In this document: piece after piece, positions 383-42,149 of the stretch
Layout of the letters: each line of letters opens with the position of its first letter
Numbering within the stretch: position 1 is the first letter of the stretch
NCBI GenBank assembly: GCA_964385425.1
Contig: CAYLOQ010000001.1
Span: 1,411-65,410 of the forward strand
Direction of reading: 5' to 3'
Length of the DNA: 64,000 nt
From: Candidatus Woesearchaeota archaeon
GTDB taxonomy: Archaea > Nanobdellota > Nanobdellia > Pacearchaeales > GW2011-AR1
Translations under genes and position numbers: made by a program
Notes under the pieces: generated by a model
Databases searched by the model: none
The model's input: the letters and a program-made list of their open reading frames with translations, nothing else
What the model was told of the DNA's origin: nothing

Positions 383-417
383 ATACTAGATTCCTAGAAA
401 TCTTATTATATAAAGAT

Positions 418-431
418 ACGCCCACGCCGAG
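418..431. repeat. Copy 1 of the GC-rich motif ACGCCCACGCCGAG (matches the tRNA-Asp 3' end)
   Basis: It is immediately flanked by a TATA-like box. The region 392-431 is nearly identical to 3191-3228, including TAGAAATCTTATTATATAAAGAT. It lies 36 nt upstream of the ATG of the partial ORF at 1-382. Confidence 0.7.
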
Positions 432-556
432 CGGTTAAGATTTGTTTAACGCCCTTATTTTTATCTTAAAATATACACGTATAATCCCTTTTTAAAATGG
501 GGTTGTTACCCAATGGGGTGCGGAAGATGAAATCATCTCAAAATTTTTTGTATTTT

Positions 557-1360
557 CTATATCCCACTCTGCCAATCTTTCAAAATATCCCTTGCTGCCC
601 TATCAGAATTAACTTCACCACCTTTTTTCAAAAAACCTTTTTTCTTTCCAATCTTTTCAATTAAATCCTCTGCATTATCAAATTTCATTTTATAAAATTC
701 CTCTAACTCTTTCTTATCGCTCTTTACAATTTCATTAAGTGCAAGTTCTGGATTCTTAACTTGATTATGCGACCTCCCACCAACCTTAACATGCCTTGCT
801 ATTTTTTCCTCATTTGTCGTAGAATATTCGTCAGAAGAAATAACCCCTGGAGAATCTAACAAGACTATACTTTCTGTAAGTCTTAATTTCTGAATCCCTT
901 TTGTAAACCCCGCCTCAGAACTTGTTTTCGCCGAATTCTTTCCAATTAAAAGATTAATCAAAGAACTCTTCCCAGTATTAGGATACCCAATAACCCCCAC
1001 CCGAACACGACGATAATCTCCTTCCAATTTCACCCTTGCTGCTTCTGCTTTAATTTTATTTCTTAACTCTGTAATTCCTGTTCTCTTTTTACATGAAACA
1101 AAAACTCGCGGATTCAAACTCTTGTCTTTTTTTCGCGTGAGGTCAGATTTATTCAAAACATAAATCATTTTCTTTCCTTTATCAAAAACCGCCTTTTCAA
1201 TTTCTTTATTTTGCATCTCTTTCACAAACCGCGCATCAAGAATCTCTAAAACAATATCAGAAGTCTCAATTATCTCCCCCAATAACTCAGGATATTTCCC
1301 TCTCTGCTTTCTGATATTCTTTAATCTTTTCCCAGAACGAGCTTGTCTCCTTGTTGCCAT
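557..1360 (-). CDS. Circularly permuted GTPase, RbgA/YlqF/Nug1-like ribosome-biogenesis GTPase
   Basis: The G4 motif NKSD precedes G1 GYPNTGKSS and G3 DSPG, the circular-permutation order. A DARF(V) motif is present, and the N-terminus is basic. Confidence 0.7.
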   Translation of the reverse strand: MATRRQARSGKRLKNIRKQRGKYPELLGEIIETSDIVLEILDARFVKEMQNKEIEKAVFDKGKKMIYVLNKSDLTRKKDKSLNPRVFVSCKKRTGITELRNKIKAEAARVKLEGDYRRVRVGVIGYPNTGKSSLINLLIGKNSAKTSSEAGFTKGIQKLRLTESIVLLDSPGVISSDEYSTTNEEKIARHVKVGGRSHNQVKNPELALNEIVKSDKKELEEFYKMKFDNAEDLIEKIGKKKGFLKKGGEVNSDRAARDILKDWQSGI

Positions 1361-1518
1361 AAAAAATTAAAGAGATAATAGTTTATTAAATAAACGCAAA
1401 CCAACAATCTTATAAACCTAGAATTTTGTTTAATATTATTATATATTGTTAAAGTCTTGGAGCTTAGCTACAAAGGCTTGGTTTCAAGAATAATTCTTGA
1501 AAATAATAATTAATTAAA

Positions 1519-2901
1519 ATGAAAACGTTTAAAGAACTCGGACTAAGTAGTGAGTTTGTATCTGTGCTTGAAAAAGACAAGATTACAACTCCTTCGGAAA
1601 TTCAGGAAAAAACAATTCCCATAGTCTTAGCAGGGCGAGATGTGATTGGAGGTTCTGCGACAGGTTCTGGAAAAACTCTTGCGTTTGCCTCAAGCATGAT
1701 AGAAAATCTTGAGAAAAGCGGAAGAATTCAAGCATTAATTTTAACACCAACAAGAGAACTTGCTGAACAAGTTTCAAATGCAATCTCAAAATTCTCCAGA
1801 CACAAAAAATTAAATGTTCTTCCTATTTATGGAGGAGTTAATATTAAATCTCAGATTAGAAAAATTCATAGCACAGATATCATTGTGGGAACTCCAGGAA
1901 GAATTTTAGACCACATGCGAAGGGGAACCTTAAATTTAGATTATGTTAAATCTCTTGTTTTAGACGAAGTTGATAGAATGTTTGATATGGGATTTCAAAG
2001 GGATGTTGAAAGAATTCTTGGTCAATGTCCCAAGAAAAGACAGACAATGCTTTTTTCAGCGACGATATCTGCTGAAATAAATTATCTTGCTAAAAAATAC
2101 ACTCAAAAACCAGCAGAGGTTTCTATTCAATCACACATCGACCCATCAAAACTTAAACAAACCTACTACAATGTTTTAGATGGTTTGAAGTTTTCATTAT
2201 TTGTTTATTTGTTAAAAAAAGAAAAAAATAATCTAGTAATGGTATTCTGCGGAACAAGACGTAATGTTGATTTTGTTGCAAATAATCTGATTAATCTTGG
2301 AATTAATGCGAAGGCGATTCACGGAGGGATGATCCAAAATAAAAGAACAAGAGTTATGGATGAGTTTAATTCAGAAAATGGTGTGAATGTTTTAGTGTGC
2401 ACAGACGTAGCTGCAAGAGGACTTGATATTTTTGGGGTGAGCCACGTATACAATTATGATTTACCAAAAACAAGTTCAGATTATATTCATCGAATCGGCA
2501 GAACAGCCAGAGCAGGACGAGATGGAATTGCAATTAGCATCTTATGCAGCAGAGATTATGAAAACTTTGGGAATATTTTAAGAGATAAAGAATTAAAAAT
2601 TAACGAGGTGAAAACTCCCTTTTTTGAAAGAGTTAGAATGATTACTAAAACTGGAAATAAAAAAAGATATTCTGATTCAAGGCAAAGATACCAAAGTCGT
2701 GGGAGAAGTAATGGACAAAGAAGAGATAGCAGAAGAAGTAAAAGTGGAGGGAGGAGTTTTAGTGGTGGAAGAAAATATAGTGATAATAAAGCAGATAGAG
2801 GAGAAAGAAAAAGTTTTGGAAGACATCCAACAAGAGGAAATGTTAAAAGAAAAAATTACAGAAAACATAATTTTAGAAGTGGTGGAAGTCAAGGAAGATG
2901 A
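1519..2901 (+). CDS. DEAD-box ATP-dependent RNA helicase with an RG/RS-rich C-terminal tail
   Basis: Q-motif TPSEIQ, motif I GSATGSGKT, Ia PTRELA, II DEVD, III SAT and VI HRIGRTARAG are all present. The C-terminus is a low-complexity R/G/S-rich tail. Confidence 0.85.
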   Translation: MKTFKELGLSSEFVSVLEKDKITTPSEIQEKTIPIVLAGRDVIGGSATGSGKTLAFASSMIENLEKSGRIQALILTPTRELAEQVSNAISKFSRHKKLNVLPIYGGVNIKSQIRKIHSTDIIVGTPGRILDHMRRGTLNLDYVKSLVLDEVDRMFDMGFQRDVERILGQCPKKRQTMLFSATISAEINYLAKKYTQKPAEVSIQSHIDPSKLKQTYYNVLDGLKFSLFVYLLKKEKNNLVMVFCGTRRNVDFVANNLINLGINAKAIHGGMIQNKRTRVMDEFNSENGVNVLVCTDVAARGLDIFGVSHVYNYDLPKTSSDYIHRIGRTARAGRDGIAISILCSRDYENFGNILRDKELKINEVKTPFFERVRMITKTGNKKRYSDSRQRYQSRGRSNGQRRDSRRSKSGGRSFSGGRKYSDNKADRGERKSFGRHPTRGNVKRKNYRKHNFRSGGSQGR

Positions 2902-2936
2902 TAAGATTAAAGAAAATTATTTTTTAATTCCTTTCC

Positions 2937-3182
2937 TCAATCAAACCAACCCAACTTCTCGTCCTTTGGCAATTTCTTTATTGCATACTCGCATTTACAC
3001 GCACCTGATTTGTCCCTGCACTGCTTAGCCCGAAGTAATTTCTTAAAACCTTTTTGAAAAACATATTTACTTCCCTTCCCCTCAGCATGCGTATTCATCC
3101 GCGCGTCAACATCTATCGTCACCCCTGTATAAAACGAACCATCCCCACATTCAAGAATATAAACATACCATTGTTTTTTCAT
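2937..3182 (-). CDS. GIY-YIG nuclease domain protein
   Basis: YVYIL...GSFYTGVT...R...H at the N-terminus fits the GIY-YIG pattern. It is a small 81-aa protein with a Cys-rich C-terminus. Confidence 0.65.
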   Translation of the reverse strand: MKKQWYVYILECGDGSFYTGVTIDVDARMNTHAEGKGSKYVFQKGFKKLLRAKQCRDKSGACKCEYAIKKLPKDEKLGWFD

Positions 3183-3214
3183 ATAATTATTTAGAAATCT
3201 TATTATATAAAGAT

Positions 3215-3228
3215 GCGCCCACGCCGAG
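3215..3228. repeat. Copy 2 of the motif (GCGCCCACGCCGAG) with extended conserved flanks on both sides
   Basis: The left flank (3191-3214) matches copy 1 and holds the TATA box of the GIY-YIG gene. The right flank (3229-3262) matches 9078-9104 and contains the hairpin GGACA-aaag-TGTCC. Confidence 0.7.
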
Positions 3229-3291
3229 GGTAGGACAAAAGTGTCCCCATTAGGGTAAAGAAAAAGGTGTCTACACCCCTAAAATTTGTGG

Positions 3292-4287
3292 TCACCTAGT
3301 TAATTTTTTTAAAGCTGAATATTCTTTGATCAATAAATCAATGGTTGGCCTTAGATTCCCTTTTGTTTGATACTCTTGTAAGGATTCATAATATTGTCTT
3401 TGATTTCTTAGATCAATATTTACTGGAGGAAAGTCATTTTTAAGTAAGATATTATTCAGCAACAACCTCCCAACCCTACCATTCCCATCAGCGAAGGGGT
3501 GTATATTTTCAAATTGGTTATGAACAACAGATGCTAATACGAGTGCAGGGTATCTTGATCTATTTTTATTATACCATCTGATAAGTTCATTAAGTAAAGA
3601 ATTTATTCTTGATTGAGGAGCTCCAAAATGAATTATATTCCCATAGCCATCTCTAACAACAACTTCTTGTCCTTTAATTCTGAATTTGCCTGCAAAATCT
3701 TTTGAATTTTTAAAAACAATTTTATGTAAATCTAAAATAAATTTTATTGATATATGTTCCCCTGTTTTTCTTATAAATTTAATAGCATCATTCACACCAT
3801 AAGTTTCTGCTATATCTTGCTTTGATTTTTTTGGCCATTTTCCCTTCTCCAAGATATCTTTTACTTCTTTTTTTGTTATTTCACTACCTTCTATTGCATT
3901 AGTATTATACGAAAAAAGCTCTGAAAAAGTTCTCCATTGTTCTTCCGATAAATGGATTATTCTTAATTTCTGACTCTTTTCTAGATTTTCAATCAGTTTT
4001 ATTTCTTTTTTTGATAACGGTGTTTTAAGAGGATCTTTAATTATTTTATATTGTTCAATTTCCTCGAGAATTATTTTTTCTGCTTTATCTAGCCTTCCTT
4101 TTAACTGTTCTTCATTTATATTTTTTCCTAGAAACTTCCTTATTTTATTTACTTTTCCATCTTCTCTAAAAGAATGTGCTAAATAATATTTTATTCTGTT
4201 TCCTTCCTTTCTCTTCTCGACATACATAACAACAAATAGGTGACTACATATATAAATCTTTCTATTGTATTGTCTACATACGCCCAC
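3292..4287 (-). CDS. Fic/Doc family protein (AMPylation-type Fic domain)
   Basis: Canonical Fic motif HPFADGNGRVGRLL. The real start is probably the internal Met near 4227 (MYVEKRK...), because the longest ORF overlaps the upstream repeat motif. Confidence 0.8.
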   Translation of the reverse strand: MGVCRQYNRKIYICSHLFVVMYVEKRKEGNRIKYYLAHSFREDGKVNKIRKFLGKNINEEQLKGRLDKAEKIILEEIEQYKIIKDPLKTPLSKKEIKLIENLEKSQKLRIIHLSEEQWRTFSELFSYNTNAIEGSEITKKEVKDILEKGKWPKKSKQDIAETYGVNDAIKFIRKTGEHISIKFILDLHKIVFKNSKDFAGKFRIKGQEVVVRDGYGNIIHFGAPQSRINSLLNELIRWYNKNRSRYPALVLASVVHNQFENIHPFADGNGRVGRLLLNNILLKNDFPPVNIDLRNQRQYYESLQEYQTKGNLRPTIDLLIKEYSALKKLTR

Positions 4288-4293
4288 GCCGAG
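4280..4293. repeat. Copy 3 of the motif ACGCCCACGCCGAG
   Basis: Upstream of the Fic gene. A TATA-like TTTATATAT box lies about 25 nt further toward the gene. Confidence 0.65.
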
Positions 4294-4333
4294 TGCTATG
4301 GGGTGTAGGACTTCGACTCCCTGTTAGGGAATC

Positions 4334-4347
4334 ACGCCCACGCCGAT
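4334..4347. repeat. Copy 4 of the motif (ACGCCCACGCCGAT variant)
   Basis: 40 nt from copy 3, between the Fic and pentapeptide genes. Confidence 0.6.
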
Positions 4348-4431
4348 AGTAGTTTGGGAGTAGTATAAGAGTGTTATAGTTGGAGAATTTTAATCCCTCC
4401 ATAGCTCAATGGTTCTGTATTAACCACTTAA

Positions 4432-5106
4432 CTATTCTTCACGAAAATCAAATTCTGGTGTAATGGCCTTTAATATAATCTTTTTTTCCCTATTCGTTAC
4501 AATAGTTTTTCTATACCCCCTATCTTCAAACTCACCCTCTCCAAATATTGCCGCTTGTATCCAGGGATTATCCCATAAACCTACCGATCCTCTAAGATCG
4601 GCCCCGCCAAACCTTACTCCATAGAGATTCGCATCTGTAAAATCTGCTTCTCTTAGATCAGCTCCATAGAGCTGAGCTTCACGGAGTTCTGTCTTTCTAA
4701 GACTTACTCCCCTTAGATCAGCCATGTGAAGAGTTACTCCTTCAAGATTTGCTAAACTAAGATCAGCCCCTTGAAGCCTTGCTCCTTTAAGATTAGCCTG
4801 ATAAAGCCTTGCTCCTTTAAGATCCGCTCCTTCAAGATTTGCATTTACCCCCCTTAAATAAGGCATATGAAGATCTCTTGCAATTAAACCTTGAAAATTA
4901 GAGTCTTCTATTGTTATTGGGTTCTCTCTGAAATAATCATTAATTAAATACTCTCTTAATACTCTAAAGCTCGGATGTCCACTTAAATTTAAATTCCTTC
5001 CCACTCTTCTAGAGAAATCTCTTCTTCCACTCAATATCCGCATAATTTCATCTGCAGTTATTGGTCTTAATTCAACACTGGTTTCTGTTTGTTCCATAAT
5101 TCCCAC
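4432..5106 (-). CDS. Pentapeptide repeat protein
   Basis: Tandem A(D/N)LxG pentapeptides, e.g. ADLKGARLYQANLKGARLQGADLSLANLEG... Confidence 0.8.
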   Translation of the reverse strand: MGIMEQTETSVELRPITADEIMRILSGRRDFSRRVGRNLNLSGHPSFRVLREYLINDYFRENPITIEDSNFQGLIARDLHMPYLRGVNANLEGADLKGARLYQANLKGARLQGADLSLANLEGVTLHMADLRGVSLRKTELREAQLYGADLREADFTDANLYGVRFGGADLRGSVGLWDNPWIQAAIFGEGEFEDRGYRKTIVTNREKKIILKAITPEFDFREE

Positions 5107-5141
5107 ACAAATTCTTCCTTTTTAAACTTTATGATATAAAT

Positions 5142-5155
5142 ACGCCCACGCCGAG
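5142..5155. repeat. Copy 5 of the motif ACGCCCACGCCGAG
   Basis: Immediately adjacent to the TATTTATATCA TATA-like box upstream of the pentapeptide-repeat gene. Confidence 0.65.
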
Positions 5156-5249
5156 AATAATACACTTTTGCATATCTAAGAGGTGTACTTTTGTGCCTCT
5201 TTAAATGACTAAATGAATAATGTTTAAATAATTTTGTATAAAAATAAAT

Positions 5250-8006
5250 TTATCTATATGTTACTTTTCTTATTTTATAATGTTTCTTAATCTTTTCCCT
5301 TTTAATTTCATTTTTTAGAATCATCCTGTTTAATTTTTGCTGCATTTTTGATGATTTCTTATCTTCATAAAATCTTTTATTAGAATAATCCTGCCCAAAC
5401 CTTATTTCTCCACGGATATTAAGAGATTTGAAAAGGACAATTATCATTAAAACAATAAACCCTATTAACAAAATTAATTTAGTGAAACTCCCAAATAATA
5501 TTGATGAATTTTCTTGAGTATTAATGTTATTTGATAGGATTTCTATAAGGAAAGAAGAGCCATAATATATTGAAATGATTAATGCAATTATTGAAACCAA
5601 AGAAATTATGATTATGAAAACTGTTTTTATGATTCCTCCAAAATTTGACTTATGATAATTGTATGGTTCTCTCTTCCTTTTCATCACTGAAATTATTATA
5701 AAAGTAGCTATTGCCAATAAAGATATGATTCCAATAAATAAAATAGGAATTTTTCCTTTAGGACCAAATGGAAAATATTCTCCTATATCAGGAATTCCTA
5801 TAATTCCTCCTGTTATTGATGGTGTATCTCCTTCATTATCTATTACTCTACCCCCACCAGAACTACTAGCACCACTTATGGTAAAGGTGTCAAAGAATTT
5901 ATCAGTTCTACTCCCTAAATTATAATATCCTGCTTCACATTGGAAAATATATGATTGAGTTGCTATAAATGTAGAAGGAACAAGAATTGCTTTATTTACC
6001 TTAAGAAGTGTCCTGTTAATCATCTGATTAAAATTAAATGAGTTATAATTATTAACTCCATCATTTAAATAACAAGTAAAATCAACTTCTTTTTCAACAA
6101 CCTGAGAGTCCTCTACTTGTGCAGATATTGAGCAAGTCATTTCGCTTCCTGAACTTGCTTGGGCAGGGCAATCAACCGAAAGATGGAAAGTCCCTGTTTT
6201 GGATTCTACTCCTTCAAGAGCAGAAGCTTGTCTTTGTTGGACTTGTAAATTTAAATCACTTGAATATCTACATGAATCTGAATTATTTACTATTATTGTG
6301 AAAGTATTATATGGTTCTACATCTGCAAATCCAATTAAAGTCATTCTATTGGTTTCTTCAAAGAAAGAAACATCTACTTCAGAAGTTCCTGCGTGTTTAA
6401 AATAAGGTATTGTAATTATATCATTTATTGTGCTTGAACTTCCTGCATCAGTTTCAATTCTTTTTTCTATACATCCTGCTATAACATCTCTATCTGTATT
6501 TTCAAAACAATATCTTGCTATAAATTTTGTTTCGTCTATTCCAAAATAATCATAAGTTATATTTACCTCCAATTCATTACAAGCACTAATTGATGAATCA
6601 AATGCACTTGTAGATATATTCACAACATCAATTATTTTAATATAGGGTGTTCCAACTTCATGCCCATAATAATTAAATTCATCTGATTCTAACTCTAAAT
6701 CTTGATCAAAATCTTCTAAATGTAAATGAAAATTAATATCAAAATCATTCCCTCCTACCACATGTGTAGGTAATAAAAACTCCTCTGAACATCTTTCAAC
6801 TACGCCCTCATCAATTTGTGGTTTTACAGAAGTCCTCATGATCACACTTTCTCCTTGTAATGTTTCCCCTGTGTCTAAACTTATTGGGAAAAAATGTTGT
6901 TCTAAGGTATCATCATCAAAACTTACTTCATTCACAAAAATAAACTTTTCTTCTGTGAAAGTATTATTTAATAATATACATAATGATGCAGGTTTTCCAC
7001 CAGTTAAAAATCCTTGACCATTTGTAGTTTTATTTCCTTCTACAGAATTATTGAAAGTACCCCAAGAAATATCTTCTTGGTTTATTCTTGTTGGTCCATC
7101 TGTTATTTGAATTTTTCCACCGAATTCATCTTTTAAATAAACAGCAGGGTACATCCCTTGACTTGCAGTAAAATCATCATGGAATCCTGTAGCGTTAGCC
7201 CATTTTTTATTTATCATAAAATCATTTAAATCATCAATTAAAAATCCCCTAGTTCCCTCCCCTGAAGAACCCTCTGCTGAGTTAGAACATTTATTGTCAT
7301 TCCCTGTTGGACAAAAACAATTAATATCTGTTAGATATTGAACCCCTGCTTTAAAATGGGCATCATCTATTTCAAAATCTACATCTAAATCTCCATTATG
7401 ATTTGATATTTCTTCTATTCCTGAAACAATAGTATTCCCACCAATTGTTTCTATATCGATTCTACAAGAAGCACCAGCAGTTCCAATTTCTGTTCCGTTT
7501 TTTACTTTTGCAGAAATTGCTAAAGTTGTTCCAATGAAGTTTTGAGTGCTTATTACAATCTCTTCTATTAATAAATCACTTCCTGTTGCAGCATTTATTG
7601 TTGCATTACTTTGTCCTGTTAAACCTCCTCCACCAGATAGTGTTGCATTAAGAACATTTCCATAAACAGATATATAAGAAGAATTAATTACGAAAGATTC
7701 AAAGAATTCATTATTTGGAGATGTAGTTGAACTTGGAGTTGTGCCTGTTGAAGTATCTACCACATGACCTGTCGCATTTGTCCAATTCACAGTATATGCT
7801 TGATTTTTCTCATTTCCTGTAGTTATTTCCATTTCTAAAGTCGCAGTTGAACCTTCAACATAGACTTCAGAATCTAAAACTGCCGTTGAAGCAGAAACAA
7901 AATTTATTAAGAATATAAATGAAAACAAAGATATTCCTAAAAGTAGGATCACAAATTTAGTTTTCATTTTTACCCCCCTCCCAATAATGTAATTTTGCTC
8001 TACCAA
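5250..8006 (-). CDS. Large secreted/surface protein of about 900 aa with an N-terminal signal peptide, three C-terminal TM helices and a basic cytoplasmic tail
   Basis: Probable start at the MKTKFVILLLGISLF... Met near 7967. The protein is Thr/Ser/Asn-rich with many N-x-S/T sequons. The C-terminus has hydrophobic segments followed by a K/R-rich tail, the same topology as the giant protein at 42624-53513. Confidence 0.6.
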   Translation of the reverse strand: MVEQNYIIGRGVKMKTKFVILLLGISLFSFIFLINFVSASTAVLDSEVYVEGSTATLEMEITTGNEKNQAYTVNWTNATGHVVDTSTGTTPSSTTSPNNEFFESFVINSSYISVYGNVLNATLSGGGGLTGQSNATINAATGSDLLIEEIVISTQNFIGTTLAISAKVKNGTEIGTAGASCRIDIETIGGNTIVSGIEEISNHNGDLDVDFEIDDAHFKAGVQYLTDINCFCPTGNDNKCSNSAEGSSGEGTRGFLIDDLNDFMINKKWANATGFHDDFTASQGMYPAVYLKDEFGGKIQITDGPTRINQEDISWGTFNNSVEGNKTTNGQGFLTGGKPASLCILLNNTFTEEKFIFVNEVSFDDDTLEQHFFPISLDTGETLQGESVIMRTSVKPQIDEGVVERCSEEFLLPTHVVGGNDFDINFHLHLEDFDQDLELESDEFNYYGHEVGTPYIKIIDVVNISTSAFDSSISACNELEVNITYDYFGIDETKFIARYCFENTDRDVIAGCIEKRIETDAGSSSTINDIITIPYFKHAGTSEVDVSFFEETNRMTLIGFADVEPYNTFTIIVNNSDSCRYSSDLNLQVQQRQASALEGVESKTGTFHLSVDCPAQASSGSEMTCSISAQVEDSQVVEKEVDFTCYLNDGVNNYNSFNFNQMINRTLLKVNKAILVPSTFIATQSYIFQCEAGYYNLGSRTDKFFDTFTISGASSSGGGRVIDNEGDTPSITGGIIGIPDIGEYFPFGPKGKIPILFIGIISLLAIATFIIISVMKRKREPYNYHKSNFGGIIKTVFIIIISLVSIIALIISIYYGSSFLIEILSNNINTQENSSILFGSFTKLILLIGFIVLMIIVLFKSLNIRGEIRFGQDYSNKRFYEDKKSSKMQQKLNRMILKNEIKREKIKKHYKIRKVTYR

Positions 8007-8163
8007 CAGGCCTAATTCTAATTAATTTTGCCCCCTTTAATTCTGCAAGAACGACGGCAACAGTGTTCCTAGAAATTTTTAAACCTCTTGCAATATCAAT
8101 TATTGTAAGTCCGTCTGTATTTTTTCTTAGAAGACTCTTAACTAATTCACCTTTTGTTTTCAT
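7957..8163 (-). CDS. Small winged-helix (MarR/ArsR-like) DNA-binding regulator
   Basis: 68 aa; LTIIDIARGLKISRNTVAVVLAELKGAKLIRIRPVG is HTH-like. It overlaps the start of the downstream surface-protein gene, so the two are probably co-transcribed. Confidence 0.5.
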   Translation of the reverse strand: MKTKGELVKSLLRKNTDGLTIIDIARGLKISRNTVAVVLAELKGAKLIRIRPVGRAKLHYWEGGKNEN

Positions 8164-8166
8164 TGT

Positions 8167-8266
8167 GCGTTAACGCTTAGTTTTATAAGTTATCTTTAAA
8201 ACTTTGTTTTATAAGTCATTTTTAAAGTTTAATGATATAAGTTATCTTTATTAATTATCTTTAATG
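8167..8266. promoter_or_regulatory. Palindrome GCGTTAACGC plus three to four tandem 25-26-bp iterons (TTTTATAAGTTATCTTTAAA) upstream of the wHTH regulator gene
   Basis: Direct repeats at 8181-8202, 8207-8227 and 8233-8253, with a partial fourth at 8254-8266. A 10-bp perfect palindrome lies at 8167-8176. Confidence 0.5.
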
Positions 8267-8390
8267 TTTATTATTGGTGCACAATAGTTTATAAATGTTT
8301 TTAATCGGTTTATGATATCAAAAAGATTTCAATAAAGCCCAGAAAGAGCGTTGGGATAATTTTAAAAAGACTTAACCCAGCTTATTTTTT

Positions 8391-8906
8391 ATGGATAATC
8401 GTAATGGAGAAGTTAGTCCTCTTGAAATAATTAGTGGGCAAGGAAGTATGGAAACCCCCGAATCATTTAGAGATAAGGCGAGGGGGTGGGTTGTAGATAC
8501 ATCCATAGCAGTTCTATGGAGTAATCTTGTTTTTGCACCAGGTGATTATGTTTTAGGTGGTTTGTGGGGGGATGAATTTGTTAAACAAAGAGTAGGAATG
8601 AGTTTGTTTAATTTGGCGTTTGGTGGGGTATTTGGAAAATTTAGAAATTATTGGACAAAAAATGTAATGAAGGCCACACCAAATAGTTCAAGATTTTACA
8701 AGGCAGTTAGTGATACCACAGCAGGTGCTATTTTTTATGGTCCTATTTATGTTGGACTTATTAAATCCCATGGGGCTTCATGGGAAGAAACATTTGCAGC
8801 ATTAGGGGGAGGACTTCTAACAGCCGCAATCACAGGTAGGCCCTATGGTTTGTGCCAAGATAAATGGAGAAAATTATTTGGAGTTAGGCCAGCTCTAGAA
8901 GAATAG
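8391..8906 (+). CDS. Hypothetical protein, paralog of 21771-22325
   Basis: Shares aligned blocks (K.R.GM..F, ASWEE/ASLEE...GGL, PYG...WRKLF/PF.EFWRTKVF) with the ORF at 21771-22325. Confidence 0.5.
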   Translation: MDNRNGEVSPLEIISGQGSMETPESFRDKARGWVVDTSIAVLWSNLVFAPGDYVLGGLWGDEFVKQRVGMSLFNLAFGGVFGKFRNYWTKNVMKATPNSSRFYKAVSDTTAGAIFYGPIYVGLIKSHGASWEETFAALGGGLLTAAITGRPYGLCQDKWRKLFGVRPALEE

Positions 8907-9063
8907 TTATAAATAAAACTCCCTCTACTCTCCCAGAAAGGGCGTTGAGAAGGTTTATTCTATGTGTTTATATGGATCTCGTTTCATATTGTGTACAATT
9001 TACAGATCTTTTTATAGAACCTGTATGTTTATTGTACACCCCACTAAAATGCAAAAATGTAGT

Positions 9064-9077
9064 ACGCCCACGCCGAG
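9064..9077. repeat. Copy 6 of the motif ACGCCCACGCCGAG with a hairpin-bearing extension
   Basis: 9064-9104 is near-identical to 3215-3262 (GAGGGTAGGA[CT]AAAAGTGTCCC). It lies between convergent genes, so it is not obviously a promoter. Confidence 0.65.
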
Positions 9078-9150
9078 GGTAGGATAAAAGTGTCCCAGTT
9101 GGGGGGTTAATATAAATCTAAACTCACCTTTAATAGAAGCTCAATAGTAA

Positions 9151-9459
9151 TTATTTCTGAACCGATAATAAATTCTTAACTGCTCCAACTAAAGAACCCT
9201 GTTGAAAATTTTTTGCTAAACTATCTATAACCGCAAGTAATCCAGGAGTATAAATCGCAATTTGTGCAACATTTGATAATTCAATTTCTTGACCTCTTAA
9301 TACCCCTGGTGCTAAAAAGCTACCTAAACAAATTGCTCCCTGAACAGCATAATTTCGGATTATTTCTCCATTACTTCTATTTTGAGAATCGTATAGCTCG
9401 TCATTGCTTCTAGCACTATACCATTCTTTTTGATCATGCAAAAAATTTTCTAATGCCAT
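9151..9459 (-). CDS. Hypothetical protein
   Basis: 102-aa ORF with a TATA-like box upstream. I recognise no motif. Confidence 0.4.
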   Translation of the reverse strand: MALENFLHDQKEWYSARSNDELYDSQNRSNGEIIRNYAVQGAICLGSFLAPGVLRGQEIELSNVAQIAIYTPGLLAVIDSLAKNFQQGSLVGAVKNLLSVQK

Positions 9460-9523
9460 GGAAATAAATGATAATAAGTGATTTATAAACTTTTCTATTT
9501 TGTCTTAATTCTTGAGTAACAAA

Positions 9524-9537
9524 GCGCCCACGCCGGG
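9524..9537. repeat. Copy 7 of the motif (GCGCCCACGCCGGG, the variant matching the tRNA in 13 of 13 core nt)
   Basis: Lies between two minus-strand genes, about 45 nt upstream of a TATA-like box for the ORF at 9151-9459. Confidence 0.6.
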
Positions 9538-9576
9538 GATAGAACTTTTTGTTAGATTTGGTGGGAGTTAAATTGT

Positions 9577-9996
9577 TTATTTACTTCTTTCAGAAACATT
9601 ACAATCAACATCAACATATCTTACTTCTACTTTAAATCCCAATTCTCTCAATTTATGTATTGTATTCTTTTGTTGATTATCCAGATGGGAAGAATTTGAT
9701 TTTACTTCCACAAAAGAAATTTCCTTTGTGTCTTGATCGATACAAACTAAATCAGGAAAACCAAGAATATTATCCTTTATTATTTTGATAACTTCTTTAA
9801 TTCTCTTTGTATCAATTTCCTCCCAAATCATCATATTTTGGATTCTTCCAATCATGGTTGTATTTATTGGGCTTATAACTTTATCATTAGTAAAATCAAC
9901 CCTCACAACATTTTGATTTTCTTCTTTCTTAAGTTTTGAAACAATATAATCTTCTGCAATTCTTCCTAAACTTGTTGTTGATATATCTTCATTCAT
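9577..9996 (-). CDS. Hjc-like PD-(D/E)xK nuclease (Holliday-junction-resolvase / restriction-endonuclease fold)
   Basis: N-terminal G..AE..V motif, then PDLVCIDQD...VEVKS, which matches the PD-x(n)-(D/E)xK catalytic core of the Hjc family. It has a longer insert than canonical Hjc. Confidence 0.5.
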   Translation of the reverse strand: MNEDISTTSLGRIAEDYIVSKLKKEENQNVVRVDFTNDKVISPINTTMIGRIQNMMIWEEIDTKRIKEVIKIIKDNILGFPDLVCIDQDTKEISFVEVKSNSSHLDNQQKNTIHKLRELGFKVEVRYVDVDCNVSERSK

Positions 9997-10044
9997 AGAA
10001 TATGGTGTTGAATTTGCCTATTTATACCTTGCTAAATGTTATGT

Positions 10045-10575
10045 TCAAGAAATAAATCTAAAACACTCATTTAAGCATTCTTTTTGAAAGCTATAGATTT
10101 TATTGTAATGTTTGATTAGAAAATAATCATTGGTGTATCTATTAAGAGGACTGTATTCTCCTTTTGGATATCTTGAAGAATTTACATGAGATGATAAAAT
10201 TTGTTGTAAGAGAAAATTTGGAGTAGTAATTTTCCCAACCCTTAAATTAGATTTACCAGAATCTATTTCAGATAATAGTGATTTGATTACTTCTATGATA
10301 GCTAAAAATATTTTTTCATTATCTATAGGAGTATTCTCTAAAATTTTAGTTTCTTCTTTCAAATCGTCATTCACCATATTTTTGTAAATATCTAGAGTTT
10401 TATGGCCATGCTTGAAGATTCCAGTAATACCTTTAGTTGTCTTTTCCACACTTTGTTGTAATAAGAAAATAGATTGAGGATATTTTCCATTTTCATAAAG
10501 TATCTTGGAAGACTCCAAATCTTCTAAGGCCATTTTTATAAAATTTTCATTTTCTTCTTTCATTTTTAACCACAT
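10045..10575 (-). CDS. HEPN domain protein
   Basis: The N-terminal helix pair ALEDLESSKILYENGKYPQSIFLLQQSVEKTTKGI matches the HEPN N-terminal pattern. It overlaps the start of the upstream secreted-nuclease gene by 10 nt. Confidence 0.55.
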   Translation of the reverse strand: MWLKMKEENENFIKMALEDLESSKILYENGKYPQSIFLLQQSVEKTTKGITGIFKHGHKTLDIYKNMVNDDLKEETKILENTPIDNEKIFLAIIEVIKSLLSEIDSGKSNLRVGKITTPNFLLQQILSSHVNSSRYPKGEYSPLNRYTNDYFLIKHYNKIYSFQKECLNECFRFIS

Positions 10576-11552
10576 AAACTCTCACAGGGAACTCCATCAT
10601 CATCACCATCTAATTCATTAACATCATAACTACAAGCATCAAATACATCCATTACTTCTGAACAAGAATTGAAATCTCCACAATTGTAAACATTTCCTCC
10701 ACAGCCAACCGTATTTACTATAACATCATCAGTCTTTGCAGATGAAGTATCCCATATCCCTATTTCTTTACCTTTTGCAATACTCTCTGCATCTTCTATT
10801 ATTGAACACTTAGAAGTATCTGGAGAATAAGGATAAGCTCTCCCATAACCTTGTAGAACAATTCTTAGATTAATAAAACAATTAGCTAAATCTGTGCAAT
10901 CTTTTTTAGTATAGATATATCTTAATAATCTTCCATACCTGTCTGTTTCTGAAATATCTTTTTCAAGATAAACTTCTTTATTAAAAATAAGATTTGTAAG
11001 ATAATCTTTTGCTTCTTGATAACCATCTTCATAAGTCTCGGGGGTATCAATGCAAATTAATCTTACTCTTTCACCTGAACTTAATTCTATAGTATCCCCA
11101 TCAATAACTCTTGTTACTTTATACCAATTTTTAGTTTCTTCAAACGTTGGAGTTTCAATAATTTCATCAGAAACAATTTCTTCTTCTGGCTCTTGGATAC
11201 ATTCTCCATTTTCACAGCCATAAAGACAATGATAATTATTAAACCACGAAGTGCCGCAATCTGAATATTGATATTTTTTTTGGATATAATTCCCATTACA
11301 TCCATATTTATCTAAATATTCTGCTTTACAATTTTCCTCTCCAATGTTAGAAATAATTTTCCCAGTTGGTATCGGGTTTTCTCTCTCTTCTTCAGTTTTC
11401 TCAGGTATAGTTTCTTCTTGAATATCCTCTTCAGACGCTTCTTCTTTAATAACATTAGAAGTGATTGTAGGTTCTTCATCTGGAAGAAAAATTCCTGCAA
11501 ATGCGAAAACAAGAACAATTCCAATAACCCATAATGCTGTTTTTGTTTTCAT
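10566..11552 (-). CDS. Secreted staphylococcal-nuclease-like (SNase/thermonuclease) protein with a C-terminal Excalibur Ca-binding domain
   Basis: Signal peptide and Cys-rich N-region. The SNase core is VIDGDTIEL...VRLICIDTPE..., and the Excalibur motif is CGDFNSCSEV...DGDDDGVPCESLC. Confidence 0.75.
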   Translation of the reverse strand: MKTKTALWVIGIVLVFAFAGIFLPDEEPTITSNVIKEEASEEDIQEETIPEKTEEERENPIPTGKIISNIGEENCKAEYLDKYGCNGNYIQKKYQYSDCGTSWFNNYHCLYGCENGECIQEPEEEIVSDEIIETPTFEETKNWYKVTRVIDGDTIELSSGERVRLICIDTPETYEDGYQEAKDYLTNLIFNKEVYLEKDISETDRYGRLLRYIYTKKDCTDLANCFINLRIVLQGYGRAYPYSPDTSKCSIIEDAESIAKGKEIGIWDTSSAKTDDVIVNTVGCGGNVYNCGDFNSCSEVMDVFDACSYDVNELDGDDDGVPCESLCG

Positions 11553-11556
11553 TTAA

Positions 11557-12312
11557 TCAGAGTCCACTACTACCTCTTATATCACATTTAGTTATATTTT
11601 TTTCAATTTTACAATAAATGTTTGGTTCGTAGTCAATTGGTTCTGGGAGGATTGTATCACAACCACCACTACAATAAACTAAAATCTGTAGATTATATTC
11701 TGTATTAAATCCAAGTCCAGAAATGATATAATCTTTTGATTCCCCAATTCCCACAGAATTATTTTCTTTGTAATATAAAAGAAACCATGCTTCAGCTTCC
11801 CTTATAATAATGGAATTGGTGCTGGATAAATCTAAAGTTAGCTGTTTGGTTTCCTTAAACAAAGAAGGAATCTCTCCTATCCATATTCCACCCCTCTCTA
11901 AACCAAGAATACGATAGTAAACTAATACATTATAGGCGAGGTTATCTCTCGAATTACTAACAGATATATTTAATGTTTTTTTAATGGGATCAGAGACTGG
12001 TTCAGATACAACAATCAAAGGATTCTCTTCATTGGTTAATTTAAAAACAACCCAACCACTTAAAAGCCCAGAAACTAGCATTCCAATTATTGTTAATACT
12101 GTCAACCTTAATTGAAATTTATGAGTTTTAAAATTAAGATATTGTCGCTGGAGTCTATCATCATAATTGGGAGCTAGACCATTAGGATAATTTCTCTCAT
12201 CTTTCCTTGCTCTTCTATGTCTCCACCTTTCCGCTTCATCAAGATATTTGTCAAAAGCTTTGTAATCTCTTTTTTCAAACCAGTTTTTTATTCTATTCCA
12301 TTCTTTTCCCAT
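11557..12312 (-). CDS. Membrane protein with a single TM and an extracytoplasmic domain
   Basis: Basic N-terminus, then the TM segment LTVLTIIGMLVSGLLSGWVVF. No recognisable motif. Confidence 0.45.
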   Translation of the reverse strand: MGKEWNRIKNWFEKRDYKAFDKYLDEAERWRHRRARKDERNYPNGLAPNYDDRLQRQYLNFKTHKFQLRLTVLTIIGMLVSGLLSGWVVFKLTNEENPLIVVSEPVSDPIKKTLNISVSNSRDNLAYNVLVYYRILGLERGGIWIGEIPSLFKETKQLTLDLSSTNSIIIREAEAWFLLYYKENNSVGIGESKDYIISGLGFNTEYNLQILVYCSGGCDTILPEPIDYEPNIYCKIEKNITKCDIRGSSGL

Positions 12313-12424
12313 AAACTTAACACAAATTGTGTAATTTTATATCTTTGCTTTGCTTTGAAATCTCCTTCAGAATTGCATAAAATACTTATAATATGCAATA
12401 TTTAAAAGAGACAATATCTTAAAT

Positions 12425-13276
12425 TTGTATATGATTGTCAAAGCAAATTATTCTAATAAAGATAGTCTCTATACACAATTTAAAGAGAGTATGAAAATAA
12501 CCTCTAAACTGGATTCTGCAGAGAAAGGTTCTGAAATAAGACTTGATTTATCTGGAATTGGAAAACTTTTACCTTGTTCAATTGTTCTTTTATCAAATAA
12601 AATAATTGAATGTAGAAAAAAAGGAAAAAAAGTTAGCATAATCTATCCTAAAAATCTTTTAATTTCAAGGTACCTTGTTGATTTGGGCTTTGGATCTGAG
12701 TGGAATGGAAAGCTAAGAAAAAATTGTTATCCTATTGCTTCTTTTACAAACAAAGAAGACTTATCTAAAATAACAAATGATATGATTAATGCTATGAATA
12801 GGGTTATACCGAAAGCTTTTGGGGGAGGGGTGATGTATTTATTATCAGAGGTAATTGATAATGTTGAAGAACATTCCAGATTTGAATACGCTTCCGTAAT
12901 GGCTCAATATTATAGAAAAGATCACATTCTTGACATATGTATTTTAGATGATGGGATTACAATTCCAACTCTTTTTAGAGAAAACAAGATTAATTTTATT
13001 AGTGATAGAGATGCTATCCATAAAGCACTTGGTGGAACTTCAACAAAAAAAGAAGGTGGAAGAGGATTTGGATTGAGAACCTCTAAAAAATTAATTCTAA
13101 GGGGTTTGAGAGGTGAATTACATATAATATCAAGAAATGGTTTTGTATCTCTTAATGCCAGGAGAATAGAAGGAGAGAGAACACCTCTGATAAAAAAATC
13201 CTTCAAAGGAACAATGTTATATTTTAGATTTAGGGTTCCTAAGAAAACTTTAAATATCCATGAATATACAGAGTAA
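12425..13276 (+). CDS. GHKL-superfamily (histidine-kinase-like) ATPase
   Basis: N-box EVIDNVEEHS, G1 DDGITIP and G2 GGRGFGL. No His-phosphotransfer domain is evident. Confidence 0.6.
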   Translation: MYMIVKANYSNKDSLYTQFKESMKITSKLDSAEKGSEIRLDLSGIGKLLPCSIVLLSNKIIECRKKGKKVSIIYPKNLLISRYLVDLGFGSEWNGKLRKNCYPIASFTNKEDLSKITNDMINAMNRVIPKAFGGGVMYLLSEVIDNVEEHSRFEYASVMAQYYRKDHILDICILDDGITIPTLFRENKINFISDRDAIHKALGGTSTKKEGGRGFGLRTSKKLILRGLRGELHIISRNGFVSLNARRIEGERTPLIKKSFKGTMLYFRFRVPKKTLNIHEYTE

Positions 13277-13592
13277 TATGAAAAAAAAAACATTTCTTTT
13301 ATTTGATTATTTCCAAAATAATGTGGTGATTCGTAATCGAATGAGAGAATTTTTTAAGAAAGTAGAAAAGGAAAAAGCAGAGGATATAGTAATAGATTTT
13401 AAAAATATAGACTTTATTTCTCGTTCTTGTAGCGATGAGTATTTAAAACTTAAAGCAAAATCCAAAAAATTCTTTAAAGAGACGAATGTCAAAGACAATG
13501 TAAGAAAGATGTTGGAACAAGTATACAAAAGTCTAATTCATGTTGTTTATGAATCTAATTCAAATAAGAAATTCATTCCCATAAAGCATTAA
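13260..13592 (+). CDS. Small STAS-like (DUF4325-like) partner protein
   Basis: 110 aa. IDFKNIDFISRSCSDEYL resembles a STAS/anti-sigma-antagonist core. It overlaps the 3' end of the GHKL ATPase gene. Confidence 0.4.
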   Translation: MNIQSNMKKKTFLLFDYFQNNVVIRNRMREFFKKVEKEKAEDIVIDFKNIDFISRSCSDEYLKLKAKSKKFFKETNVKDNVRKMLEQVYKSLIHVVYESNSNKKFIPIKH

Positions 13593-13704
13593 ACTTATTC
13601 TGTAAATCGGAAGGGCTTATATGAGTATAAATTGTTGTGTATCTATCCTTGAATGTCCCAAGAGCTGTTGAACTTCTCTAAGGAATTGTAACACAAAGTA
13701 TATA

Positions 13705-13776
13705 CGCCCACGCCGGGAGTCGAACCCGGGTTACATCCGCGACAGGGATGAGTCATAGCCGTTAGACCACGTAGGC
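13705..13776 (-). tRNA. tRNA-Asp (anticodon GUC)
   Basis: The reverse complement folds as GCCUACG / D-arm / CAUCC-CUGUCGC-GGAUG (anticodon GUC) / CCGGG-UUCGACU-CCCGG / CGUGGGC + discriminator G. CCA is not encoded. Confidence 0.85.
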
Positions 13777-14127
13777 ACAATCATCAATGTTAGAATTTGT
13801 TTTTAAAGTTTTTGTTAAGGTTATTGGTTATGGTTCAATGGTTGAAACAATATTTGCTATAATAGAAGAGAATAACCCAAAAGCAGCAATTAATAATCCA
13901 ACATTGTCTAAAGCATTTAATTGTAGTAAAAGAATTATGAAGTAGATGAATATAATAAAATTGATTATTTGTGAAAAGATAGATAACGCATCCCCAACCT
14001 TCATTTTATATTATCGCTCTTATTATCCCATAAACTAATAAACCCAAGGCGATAATTCCCAAAATCCATGCGATGATTTGAAATATTTCTAAAGTCCTCT
14101 TTTTCATATTAGATTGAATTTCTATTT

Positions 14128-21625: not shown

Positions 21626-21707
21626 GCCCGTATCGCATAGTGGTTATTGCACAAGACTGGAACTCTTGGCCCTTCGGGGCTCCCAGGTTCAATTCCTGGT
21701 GCGGGCG
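21626..21707 (+). tRNA. tRNA-Ser (anticodon GGA), type II with a long variable arm
   Basis: GCCCGUA acceptor, anticodon stem CAAGA/UCUUG with loop CUGGAAC, 14-nt variable arm, T-arm CCAGG-UUCAAUU-CCUGG, 3' UGCGGGC + G. Confidence 0.85.
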
Positions 21708-21770
21708 TGATGTTACTTCTAAGTTAAGACAAAAGGAAGGGTTTAAAAATCACTATCTAATTGAATTTGT

Positions 21771-22325
21771 ATGGATTATGAAGAGAGAAGACCAGACCAT
21801 AATAATGATCATGACACTACTTCAGTTAGTGACAGCTCTAGAGAAAAAGAATCTTCATTACTGAAAAAAGTAAAACATGTTGGTGCGACCGTAAAAGATA
21901 TTGCTGCAAGCACAACCGCAGGATGGGTTGCTTACACACCAATTATGGCTCCGATTGAATATTTCTGGGCCGGTATGGATGGGGGAGAAGTGCTAAAAAC
22001 TAGAGCCATGGCTGGCTTCGGACACTTAATTGGTTTGCCCCTATATCAAAAATCAAGAGAATATTTTGGAAGAAAGTTTAATGTAACAGAGGATAGTAGC
22101 AAATTGAAAAAAAGAGCGCTTAATGCTCTTGCATTTGTACCTGTTCATCCCCCAACTTATGCTTTGTTCTTAGCCCTTTCAGGAGCCTCGTTAGAAGAAA
22201 TGAAATACGCACTTCCGGCAGGCCTAGCAGTAGTAATGGTAACATCCCCCATATTCACACCCTTCATGGAATTTTGGAGAACAAAAGTATTTAAGGAAAA
22301 ACCGACCCTTAAGAAAAAGTGTTAA
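21771..22325 (+). CDS. Hypothetical protein, paralog of 8391-8906
   Basis: See 8391-8906. It lies immediately downstream of tRNA-Ser. Confidence 0.45.
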   Translation: MDYEERRPDHNNDHDTTSVSDSSREKESSLLKKVKHVGATVKDIAASTTAGWVAYTPIMAPIEYFWAGMDGGEVLKTRAMAGFGHLIGLPLYQKSREYFGRKFNVTEDSSKLKKRALNALAFVPVHPPTYALFLALSGASLEEMKYALPAGLAVVMVTSPIFTPFMEFWRTKVFKEKPTLKKKC

Positions 22326-22420
22326 CCCCCTAACTGAGACACTTTTATGCCTCTCTTGGCGCGGGCGTTTTTTATCTTTTACTACAACAATATTTAAAAA
22401 GGAGTTATCGTCTTAATTTT

Positions 22421-41900: not shown

Positions 41901-42149
41901 AGGGTGTGGGTCCACAGGAATTCCCCTCCCGTCATCTTCAATTGTCGCAGAACCGTCCTTATTTAATGTTACTTTTATTTCCTTACAATATCCTGCAAGT
42001 GCTTCATCCACAGAGTTGTCCACAACTTCATATACCAGATGATGTAGCCCATCTTTTCCAGTTCCGCCTATGTACATGGCAGGTCTTTTCCTGACCCCTT
42101 CAAGCCCTTCAAGCACCTTTATTTCAGATGCTCCATATTTTTCTTCCAT
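38982..42149 (-). CDS. gyrB: DNA gyrase subunit B, interrupted by an in-frame intein
   Basis: GHKL ATPase N-domain and a TOPRIM domain. The conserved LYLVEGESAGG | SAK...AILPLKGKILNVEK block is split by a 431-aa insertion. The exteins total about 624 aa. Confidence 0.92.
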   Translation of the reverse strand: MEEKYGASEIKVLEGLEGVRKRPAMYIGGTGKDGLHHLVYEVVDNSVDEALAGYCKEIKVTLNKDGSATIEDDGRGIPVDPHPVFKIPAVQVALTKLHAGGKFDKKSYAISGGLHGVGISVVNALSKKLIIDISRDRKIYQQEYSRGDAKTRLKVVGKNGSTGTKITFWPDPEIFSKLDFDYKVLETRFREIVFLNAGLRIILVDENQKKKEEFFSAGGLIEFVKWLNKSKEVLHKPIYFKKEVNHTIVEASVQYNTGYQENIFGFVNTINTVEGGTHVSGFKTALTRVINDYARKKGLLKNGSLSGEDVREGLTVVLSLKMGEPQFEGQTKTKLGNSEIKGFVDSMVTTALSEFFEENPSVARKITSKAIDSSKARLAAKKAKDLVRRKNAFSLGGLPGKLADCSSKKSENTELYLVEGESAGGCFSGDTKIALADGRNLSFKQLVEEYKNGKENFCYTIRKDASIGIARIENPRITKRNTSVIKVVLDNNEEIVCTPDHKFMLRNKEYKEAKNLTKEDSLMPLYKKISKMGGRITIDGYEMVLNTDGKWIFTHMISDEYNLENNVYSKIQGDSRHHIDFNKLNNNPTNIIRMSKEDHLILHTEHLEKTLHREDVKEKARQAHRKPEYREKVRMWAKQPDVRKMLSERSKQLWKNPEYKQNIMKKYMEFYNSNEEYRENLKKRLYQQQKEYWSDSENREKASKKVKKFFEENPDAKEYLSSLAKEQWKDEILLIWRRQKTKEQWTPEFRKRRMETYNQTYYRKTIELAKKVLENYGNLDNFDKIRIGNKDRSILSMETFCSRFFDKNNETMLEAVKNYNHKITKIERVNERMDVYDLEVKDTNNFALESGIFVHNSAKMARNKEIQAILPLKGKILNVEKSNPVRALSSEEITNMITAIGTGVGEGFNIEKLRYNKIIIMTDADVDGEHIKTLLLTFFFRFMPKLIENGNIYAAMPPLYRIRKKKDHYVYTDEELKRTVERLGATNVTRFKGLGEMSSVQLWDTTMNPKTRKIKKIFIEDAVEADMTFSMLMGDDVQARKQFIQENAMEAQLDI
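39582..40874 (-). mobile_element. GyrB intein (Hint domain plus HNH endonuclease domain)
   Basis: Starts with Cys immediately after SAGG (CFSGDTKIALADG, block A) and ends ...GIFVHN followed by Ser+1. The internal HNH motif is GDSRHHIDFNKLNNNPTNIIRMSKEDHLILH, and the K/E/R-rich NPEY-containing repeats are NUMOD-like. Confidence 0.85.

Follow-up and report, generated by a model that had tools for sequence, protein, structure and literature searches.

Mobile elements that integrate at tRNA genes can be recognized by an intact tRNA gene that is followed, on the same strand, by copies of its 3' end which mark the boundaries of the inserted DNA. Sites of this kind, attL and attR, are attributed to Reiter 1989 and Williams 2002 by PMC9897764, which takes displaced tRNA fragments as marks of integrations. 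In Archaea, attachment (att) sites may be as short as 8 bp and arrays arise by re-use of a site; in the Thaumarchaeota, the att cores measure 8-26 bp and the elements 9-23 kb (PMC6563490). Here we describe an intergenic module at 3186-3265 in 64,000 nucleotides (nt) of DNA from a Candidatus Woesearchaeota archaeon, the whole of which is referred to as the window. A first-pass annotation, made from the letters of the sequence, had described this module as a hairpin, a GC-rich motif and a TATA box, repeated in part at 9064-9104. In our analysis, it is probably an attR-like junction within a tRNA-anchored island of small, integrase-less segments in a DPANN archaeon. The window is a portion of a 505-kb metagenomic scaffold, scaffold_2 of ena:ERZ23499938, and has a low G+C content (0.30-0.37). 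It encodes translation factors of the aIF2-gamma and aIF5B types and is therefore archaeal, and its seryl-tRNA synthetase (SerRS) is nearest to proteins named Woesearchaeota, Pacearchaeota or Nanoarchaeota, all DPANN archaea.

The locus is similar to tRNA-targeted elements and islands in several respects. An intact tRNA-Asp gene is followed downstream by direct repeats of its 3' part on the same strand, which lie at the boundaries of segments stacked in tandem, as with re-use of a site. The cargo is of the accessory and defence kind, and the 11-nt core falls within the range of 8-26 bp. The differences are that no integrase is found in or near the array, that the segments measure 43 nt to 4.2 kb as against 9-23 kb, that seven displaced copies are present in 13 kb, and that families of arms of 30-50 nt, by which we mean the sequence just upstream of a core, are shared across different tRNA tails.

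The Tycheposon islands of Prochlorococcus carry their own recombinase and replication genes and have an att site of about 40 nt (bioRxiv 10.1101/2020.12.28.424599). They resemble our locus in being seeded at tRNA genes, in having neighbours split by a partial tRNA copy, in the displacement of older arrivals inward by newer ones, and in the scattering of degraded remnants and extra partial tRNAs; in contrast, no recombinase or replication genes were seen here, the exact block is 11 nt and the host is archaeal. A further comparison is with the cis-mobilizable elements of streptococci, which are att-flanked, encode no integrase of their own, depend on mobilization in trans and accumulate by accretion. 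Our locus likewise consists of integrase-less, att-bounded segments in tandem at a tRNA-type site, whereas the streptococcal elements are bacterial and larger and have a known integrase-encoding partner, for which we found no counterpart here.

For the DPANN archaea, which are host-dependent and have very small genomes, the ways in which accessory and defence genes are gained or swapped are poorly known. With an island at tRNA-Asp, a process of a known kind accounts for the GC motif and for the sequences on either side of it. If the segments are mobile, they would give these archaea a compact means of capturing genes at tRNA loci, with no integrase inside each unit. For annotation, such repeats could be mistaken for regulatory motifs or RNA structures, as they were in the first-pass annotation.

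The tRNA-Asp tail, its copies and their junctions

The GC motif, CGCCCACGCCG, is the reverse complement of the 11-nt 3' tail of tRNA-Asp(GTC). The first-pass annotation had missed this identity with the 3' end of the gene at 13704-13777. Read on the minus strand, the motif is CGGCGTGGGCG, hereafter the core, and comprises, in order, three nt from the end of the T-stem, the acceptor strand of 7 nt and the discriminator base. Eight exact copies of CGCCCACGCCG were found in the window, where none is expected by chance, all read on the plus strand and starting at 419, 3216, 4281, 4335, 5143, 9065, 9525 and 13705. Together they span 419-13715 and include the tRNA's own tail; the seven displaced copies are all intergenic and lie on the tRNA strand within 13.3 kb downstream of tRNA-Asp. 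The other 50 kb of the window and a stretch of 7.5 kb past its left end contained no further exact core; with the array included, about 71 kb was covered.

ARAGORN and Rfam called two intact tRNA genes in the window and none of the orphan cores, and an Rfam scan of the whole window at gathering thresholds returned the two tRNAs and nothing else. Neither did the tRNA finders call a tRNA at the orphan copies in the metagenome loci described below. A split-tRNA half or tRNA pseudogene was considered and rejected, as the finders were blank at the orphans and the 5' acceptor strand GCCTACG does not lie upstream of the copies. A primer-binding site, that is, the complement of a tRNA 3' end, was also rejected, with no TGG ahead of the complement.

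The features of the array are given below in the direction of the tRNA, with window coordinates. The arms fall into families, two of which we call N-type and H-type.

13704-13777, minus strand: tRNA-Asp(GTC) gene, anchor of the array (ARAGORN; Rfam RF00005, 56 bits); the GC motif corresponds to its 3'-terminal 11 nt, 13705-13715
13703-9536: first segment after tRNA-Asp, 4.2 kb, with a STAS-like gene, an ATPase, a gene of 251 amino acids (aa), and SNase, HEPN and VRR-NUC genes
9525-9535, minus strand: core, with an N-type arm
9524-9076: segment with a 102-aa gene (9151-9459)
9076-9104, minus strand: H-type arm, distal end of the segment with the 102-aa gene
9065-9075, minus strand: core, second junction of the first-pass annotation
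9064-5154: segment with an AlaE-like gene (opposite strand), a small helix-turn-helix (HTH) protein and a 905-aa membrane protein
5143-5153, minus strand: core, with a 48-nt arm upstream
5142-4346: segment with a pentapeptide-repeat gene
4335-4345, minus strand: core
4334-4292: segment of 43 nt, geneless
4281-4291, minus strand: core
4280-3227: segment with a single Fic gene, bounded by the cores at 4281 and 3216
3292-4227, minus strand: Fic-domain gene (Pfam PF02661; PADLOC SoFic and PDC-S04, E = 1e-33 to 1e-34)
3257-3265, minus strand: T-run TTTTTCTTT, located 27-35 nt past the stop codon of the Fic gene
3227-3262, minus strand: H-type arm, distal end of the Fic segment, with the palindrome GGACA/TGTCC (3233-3246)
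3216-3226, minus strand: core CGGCGTGGGCG, an exact match to the 3' tail of tRNA-Asp and the putative crossover site at the studied junction
3215-430: segment with a GIY-YIG gene, a DEAD-box helicase (opposite strand) and a GTPase
3192-3214, minus strand: TATA module of 23 nt, TAGAAATCTTATTATATAAAGAT, proposed leaderless promoter of the next segment
2937-3182, minus strand: GIY-YIG nuclease gene, first in the segment downstream of the junction (Pfam PF01541, E = 1e-13)
419-429, minus strand: last core of the array, followed by a TATA module
395-417, minus strand: second copy of the 23-nt TATA module, identical to 3192-3214
From about 384, running off the window: 391-aa gene past the array

The segments thus often hold one gene. 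The G+C content of the array is 0.30-0.33, compared with 0.33-0.37 for most of the remaining window, and the array has the usual cargo of an island, including the SoFic-like Fic gene together with HEPN, VRR-NUC, SNase and pentapeptide genes.

Where the tRNA tail differs between genomes, the repeat differs with it. In contig L007, whose SerRS is 72% identical to that of the window, the tRNA-Asp gene ends in CGGTCGGGGCG, and its two downstream repeats carry CGGTCGGGGCG as well. Similarly, the repeats behind tRNA-Ser genes in L009 and L043 equal the tail of the host's own tRNA-Ser; in L009 and L010, this tail recurs 579 nt downstream with one small gene between. The tRNA-Asp gene of L013, a contig with a GIY-YIG protein in the same 90%-identity cluster as that of the window, has the same tail as ours and two extra copies downstream, one ahead of a purine-synthesis gene and the other ahead of a GTPase gene. 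In L003, the closest relative with a long enough contig (SerRS 83% identical), a gene for a 391-aa tyrosine integrase lies about 290 nt after tRNA-Asp, and tRNA-Asp therefore serves as an integration site in this lineage. Within the elements of our array, no integrase was found.

We compared the 40 nt on either side of 26 core copies, for which the background identity was 0.32-0.37. Twenty-seven pairs were at least 60% identical on one side of the core, 25 of them upstream only and two downstream only, and no pair was alike on both sides. The studied junction itself is of this mosaic kind: the copies at 3216 and 9065 have only the upstream arm in common (0.70 upstream, 0.23 downstream), and those at 3216 and 419 only the promoter side (0.28 upstream, 0.68 downstream). 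The stretches 3216-3255 and 9065-9104, both palindromes within them and the TATA repeat were all found where the first-pass annotation had placed them. Between the two stretches, 36 of 40 positions match and the first 20 are identical, with no such match expected. The sharing reported as about 40 nt beyond the core includes the core, however, and the copies have 29 nt in common beyond it (25/29 identical). Similarly, a TATA-containing stretch identical to that at 3216 does occur at 395-417, with a length of 23 nt and not the 27 nt reported.

A unit bounded by cores was found in two different contexts. The sequences L043 8476-8778 and L069 1181-1486, which encode a 68-aa membrane protein, are 80% identical exactly from core to core, and their outer flanks are unrelated (30-32% identity); recombination at the core predicts such a placement. 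In addition, the window arm 5154-5201 (48 nt), which has two hairpins, forms together with the core and the next 4 nt a block of 63 nt that matches L057 3599-3661 (oriented) at 100% identity, where the flanks around the block are not homologous to the window. The suggestion of conserved termini of related integrated elements, which the first-pass annotation had offered as one of two possibilities, was therefore essentially right, given a core that is a tRNA tail, similarity that breaks at the core and a cassette that runs from core to core.

The sequences just upstream of the core fall into families that partly resemble a decayed tRNA T-arm. The N-type arm is present at 9525 in the window and in L026, L043, L056 and L069, and matches the T-loop and the 3' strand of the T-stem of the tRNA at 18 of 23 positions; the CTTTGTT downstream of the core at 9525 matches the flank that follows the tRNA-Asp gene of L013. 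The H-type arm is present in four copies, at 3227-3262, 9076-9104 and, on the plus strand, 22326-22356 in the window, with one more in L043, where it is followed by ATCTTTATATAAT, a sequence resembling the TATA module at 3216. Three different cores adjoin the four copies: the Asp tail in two of them, and the Ser-GGA and Ser-TGA tails, with one mismatch each, in the other two. It follows that the H-type arm belongs to the inserted segment and not to a given tRNA.

On the basis of these patterns, we propose the following model. An incoming segment would bear an attachment site whose core is the last 11 nt of the tRNA. Recombination within this core would restore the tRNA gene and shift the previous tail copy downstream, and the resulting boundary would consist of the arm of the newer segment, the 11-nt core and the start of the older segment, in that order. 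At 3216, the hairpin stretch 3227-3262 would be the end arm of the Fic segment, CGGCGTGGGCG (3226-3216) would be the crossover core, and the TATA module (3214-3192) would head the GIY-YIG segment as its leaderless promoter. We infer from the sequence that a site-specific recombinase acting in trans would be responsible, and that the arms are most likely the side of the site to which it binds rather than an RNA structure.

Several further regularities were seen around the core. The base directly after it is always a pyrimidine in 27 copies from the window and other loci (T in 22, C in 5), and because of this the conserved block may be 12 nt rather than 11. The H-type arms carry CCTAC adjoining the core, which equals positions 2-6 of the 5' acceptor strand of tRNA-Asp. 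A C-rich tract (CCCAC, CCCA or CCCAT), complementary to the GTGGG of the core, lies about 28-31 nt upstream of the core at 9525 and 9065 in the window and in L026, L044, L057 and L069, so that its distance is nearly fixed; this complement is only weakly enriched (p about 0.03), in copies that are not independent of one another. The starts of the cores at 4281 and 4335 are just 54 nt apart, with the geneless 43-nt arm between the two cores. Within 4281-4345, this arm holds CCCTAAC, a T-arm-like hairpin (AGGGA-GTCGAAG-TCCT) and CCTAC, and it may be a cassette minus its gene, or a bare site.

Points against an island and competing readings

A number of observations weigh against an island built in this way. 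Pfam scans of about 48 open reading frames (ORFs) revealed no Phage_integrase or other recombinase domain in the window ORFs covered or in contig L001, and no recombinase gene was found in the array, elsewhere in the window or in the 7.5 kb past its end. Among the top 120 hits for the L003 integrase, none was a homologue on the 505-kb scaffold, and a tblastn search with this integrase gave no match; two contigs do carry integrase homologues, with no tRNA nearby. The arrays of L007, L009 and L013 have no recombinase within 10 kb. Four scans of viral collections for a free copy of the site yielded nothing, or chance matches without the core, and the window's own segments showed neither an empty site nor a circular junction. 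The segments are very small, the 11-nt identity block is short, though inside the published range, and the segment 3215-430 holds housekeeping-looking genes, the GTPase and the DEAD-box helicase. We found no single simple event that would turn the gene order of L013 into the window's order of GIY-YIG, DEAD (inverted) and GTPase. In addition, the arm at 419 is homologous to an L013 arm that stands next to a different gene, which is not explained by simple conservation of a cassette.

A possible alternative, which we put forward tentatively, is an integron-like platform on tRNA tails with units made up of a promoter, usually one gene, an arm of 30-50 nt and the 11-nt core. A recombinase encoded elsewhere might capture, stack and reshuffle these units at tRNA-Asp, tRNA-Ser(GGA) and tRNA-Ser(TGA), and the arm, possibly as a folded strand, might be the recognition signal. 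In line with a folded signal, the hairpin pairs better on the opposite strand (see below), and several arms have a complement of the core, the C-rich tract, some 30 nt upstream. Integrons, and clusters of attC sites lacking integron-integrases (CALINs), have been reported in Archaea with their arrays of attC cassettes, and arrays without an integrase are common (PMC9668308). Our arrays are like them in consisting of mostly single-gene cassettes in one orientation, in having cassettes that end in a recombination-site module with families within and between genomes, and in often having no integrase beside the array. They are unlike integrons in that no IntI was found in the window or in L001, in that the cassettes have their own TATA-like box (11 junctions) and not a common promoter, and in that the boundary is CGGCGTGGGCG without an R''/R' pair (RYYYAAC/GTTRRRY), in an array that starts at a tRNA gene and not at attI. 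With neither R''/R' boxes nor an IntI, an identification of the sites as integron attC was rejected. A GTTRRRY match was seen by eye in one arm family only (419 and L013 9143), with no complementary partner upstream. The resemblance to integrons is thus in how the arrays might work and not in membership.

It is unlikely that the copies are dead relics, that is, inactive old scars consisting of displaced tRNA ends or decayed pseudogenes, with shared stretches produced by local duplication. Such an origin would agree with the failure to find a recombinase nearby, with the likeness of the N-type arms to decayed T-arms at 18 of 23 positions and with the housekeeping-type genes inside the array. 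However, all eight cores are exact while their flanks are at background identity, the 63-nt arm plus core is 100% identical in unrelated contexts, one arm family is found on the Asp, Ser-GGA and Ser-TGA cores, and a cassette is shared core to core between contigs. Taken together, these findings argue for recent or ongoing exchange, or for selection on the site, and the exact cores, the identical arm and the single arm family on three tRNA tails suggest that the arrays are still active rather than scars.

The hairpin and the TATA module

We consider it very unlikely that the junction is a module acting at the RNA level, in which the hairpin would terminate or process the upstream transcript and be fused to a promoter cassette, with the GC motif as part of the signal and selection on RNA structure. 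This was the other possibility raised by the first-pass annotation, and some of what it described is present. The order of stop codon, T-run, hairpin, core, TATA box and ATG is true of the junction at 3216, the distance from TATA to ATG suits a promoter, and many arms hold a short inverted repeat upstream of the core. At 9065, on the other hand, the described order is not found, as the next gene (8391-8906) is on the opposite strand.

The palindromes are GGACA-AAAG-TGTCC at 3233-3246 and GGATA-AAAG-TGTCC at 9082-9095. The C-to-T change between them had been read as a pairing-preserving G-U wobble, consistent with selection on RNA structure, and this reading is not supported: the change pairs as G-U only in a plus-strand transcript, the strand not used in the proposed order of genes, and it gives a C-A mismatch on the gene strand. 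Any transition within a Watson-Crick pair yields a wobble pair on one or the other strand, and hence a lone C-to-T change carries no weight. The covariation analysis that the first-pass annotation had recommended could draw on additional H-type copies, four in all with those at 22326-22356 and in L043, and it revealed no compensatory changes. On the gene strand, only the copy at 3216 has a perfect stem, and the two copies other than 3216 and 9065 form two of five pairs. Over the four copies, 65% of cells pair on this strand, which is like the slid controls (50-60% at -1, -2, -3 and +2 columns, 30-35% at +1 and +3). The hairpin is absent from the minimum-energy folds of both copies on the gene strand, and folds of 60 nt were not more stable than those of shuffled sequences (z of about +0.4).

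The opposite strand is more favourable to a structure, with 90% of cells pairing across the four copies as against at most 70% in slid controls. The variation there is confined to two pairs, where it is one-sided and GC-to-GU, and to a further pair that two of the copies do not form; given four copies and some four independent changes, a structural role for the opposite strand is at most possible. The hairpin is not conserved as an RNA structure on the gene strand and should not be treated as a conserved RNA element. Archaeal terminators are usually oligo-T runs, and the T-run at 3257-3265 would be a more typical archaeal termination signal than the hairpin. A module acting on RNA also leaves unexplained the identity of the core with the tRNA tail, its change in L007, the placement of the copies downstream of the tRNA only and the break in similarity at the core.

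The promoter half of this suggestion is plausible, while a hairpin for termination or processing finds no support. TTTATATAA is located at 3211-3203 on the minus strand, and the TATA box starts about 28-29 nt before the ATG of the GIY-YIG gene (3182). A TATA-like box starting 28-30 nt before the next ATG was found at 11 junctions in the window and its relatives, namely 3216, 419 and nine more. This spacing between TATA box and start fits archaeal promoters of the leaderless type, and it is plausible, judging from the sequence, that the module is the leaderless promoter of the next gene.

It is very unlikely that the core is a protein-binding regulatory DNA motif, for example an upstream promoter element, that merely resembles a tRNA tail and marks co-regulated genes, since, for all that it is intergenic and in one orientation throughout and lies directly upstream of the TATA box at 419, 3216, 5143 and L013 9143, its distance from the TATA box ranges from 5 to about 80 nt, the copy at 9065 and the tRNA itself face a convergent gene, it is confined to the stretch after tRNA-Asp, it varies between genomes exactly as the tRNA tail does, and the conserved side is the upstream arm and not the promoter side.

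Related arrays and other features of the window

A second array, with one cassette and at a different tRNA, is located at 21626-22367 on the plus strand of the window:

21626-21707, plus strand: tRNA-Ser(GGA) gene
22326-22356, plus strand: H-type arm, joined to the following core
22357-22367, plus strand: core TGGCGCGGGCG, the tRNA-Ser(GGA) tail with one mismatch

The tRNA-Ser(GGA) gene and the tail copy at 22357 bracket one AlaE-like gene (21771-22325), which is paralogous to the AlaE-like gene at 8391-8906 within the tRNA-Asp array. In L043 (oriented 8250-9180; the original orientation is reverse), tRNA-Ser(TGA) is followed by its own exact tail 154 nt on, then by an Asp-type core and then by the H-type arm with a Ser-type core carrying one mismatch. 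In L005, similarly, a tRNA-Ser gene is followed at a distance of 646 nt by an Asp-type core. As seen in L043 and L005, a single array can combine cores from different tRNAs.

Scanning of metagenomes with a degenerate pattern of arm plus core gave 49 loci. Of these, 40 had a G+C of at least 0.49 and were taken as chance matches and left out, many of them being within apparently one conserved coding sequence; the other nine are low-G+C loci (at most 0.34) with orphan copies. Several of the nine are short single-gene arrays, and L069 has three exact cores 1181 and 429 nt apart. The scan pattern fixed pyrimidines just upstream of the core, and those positions are therefore not independent evidence. 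A search of genome contigs with a 19-mer of arm plus core gave one chance match, in a GC-rich bacterium. The proteins of the window's own segments are singletons at 90% identity.

In eight related contigs, the GIY-YIG gene directly follows the GTPase gene with overlapping stop and start codons and no module between them. The arm, core and promoter ahead of the GIY-YIG gene in the window were thus acquired and are not ancestral. The GTPase, GIY-YIG and DEAD-box genes of the window (557-3182) and of L013 (9189-11983) are 70-83% identical at the nucleotide level and differ in order and in the orientation of the DEAD gene. The arm that stands ahead of the GTPase gene in L013 sits behind the GTPase gene in the window.

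SoFic and PDC-S04 are defence candidates, and the Fic protein that matches both is encoded in the cassette beside the studied junction. Directly past the array, a HicAB pair was found in L001 (15112-15583). Elsewhere in the window, the DNA gyrase B gene (38982-42149, minus strand) contains an intein, with an Intein_splicing domain between the GyrB and Toprim domains. A 3629-aa ORF at 42624-53513 (minus strand) is presumably a giant surface protein and has several families of internal direct repeats of about 60-120 nt.

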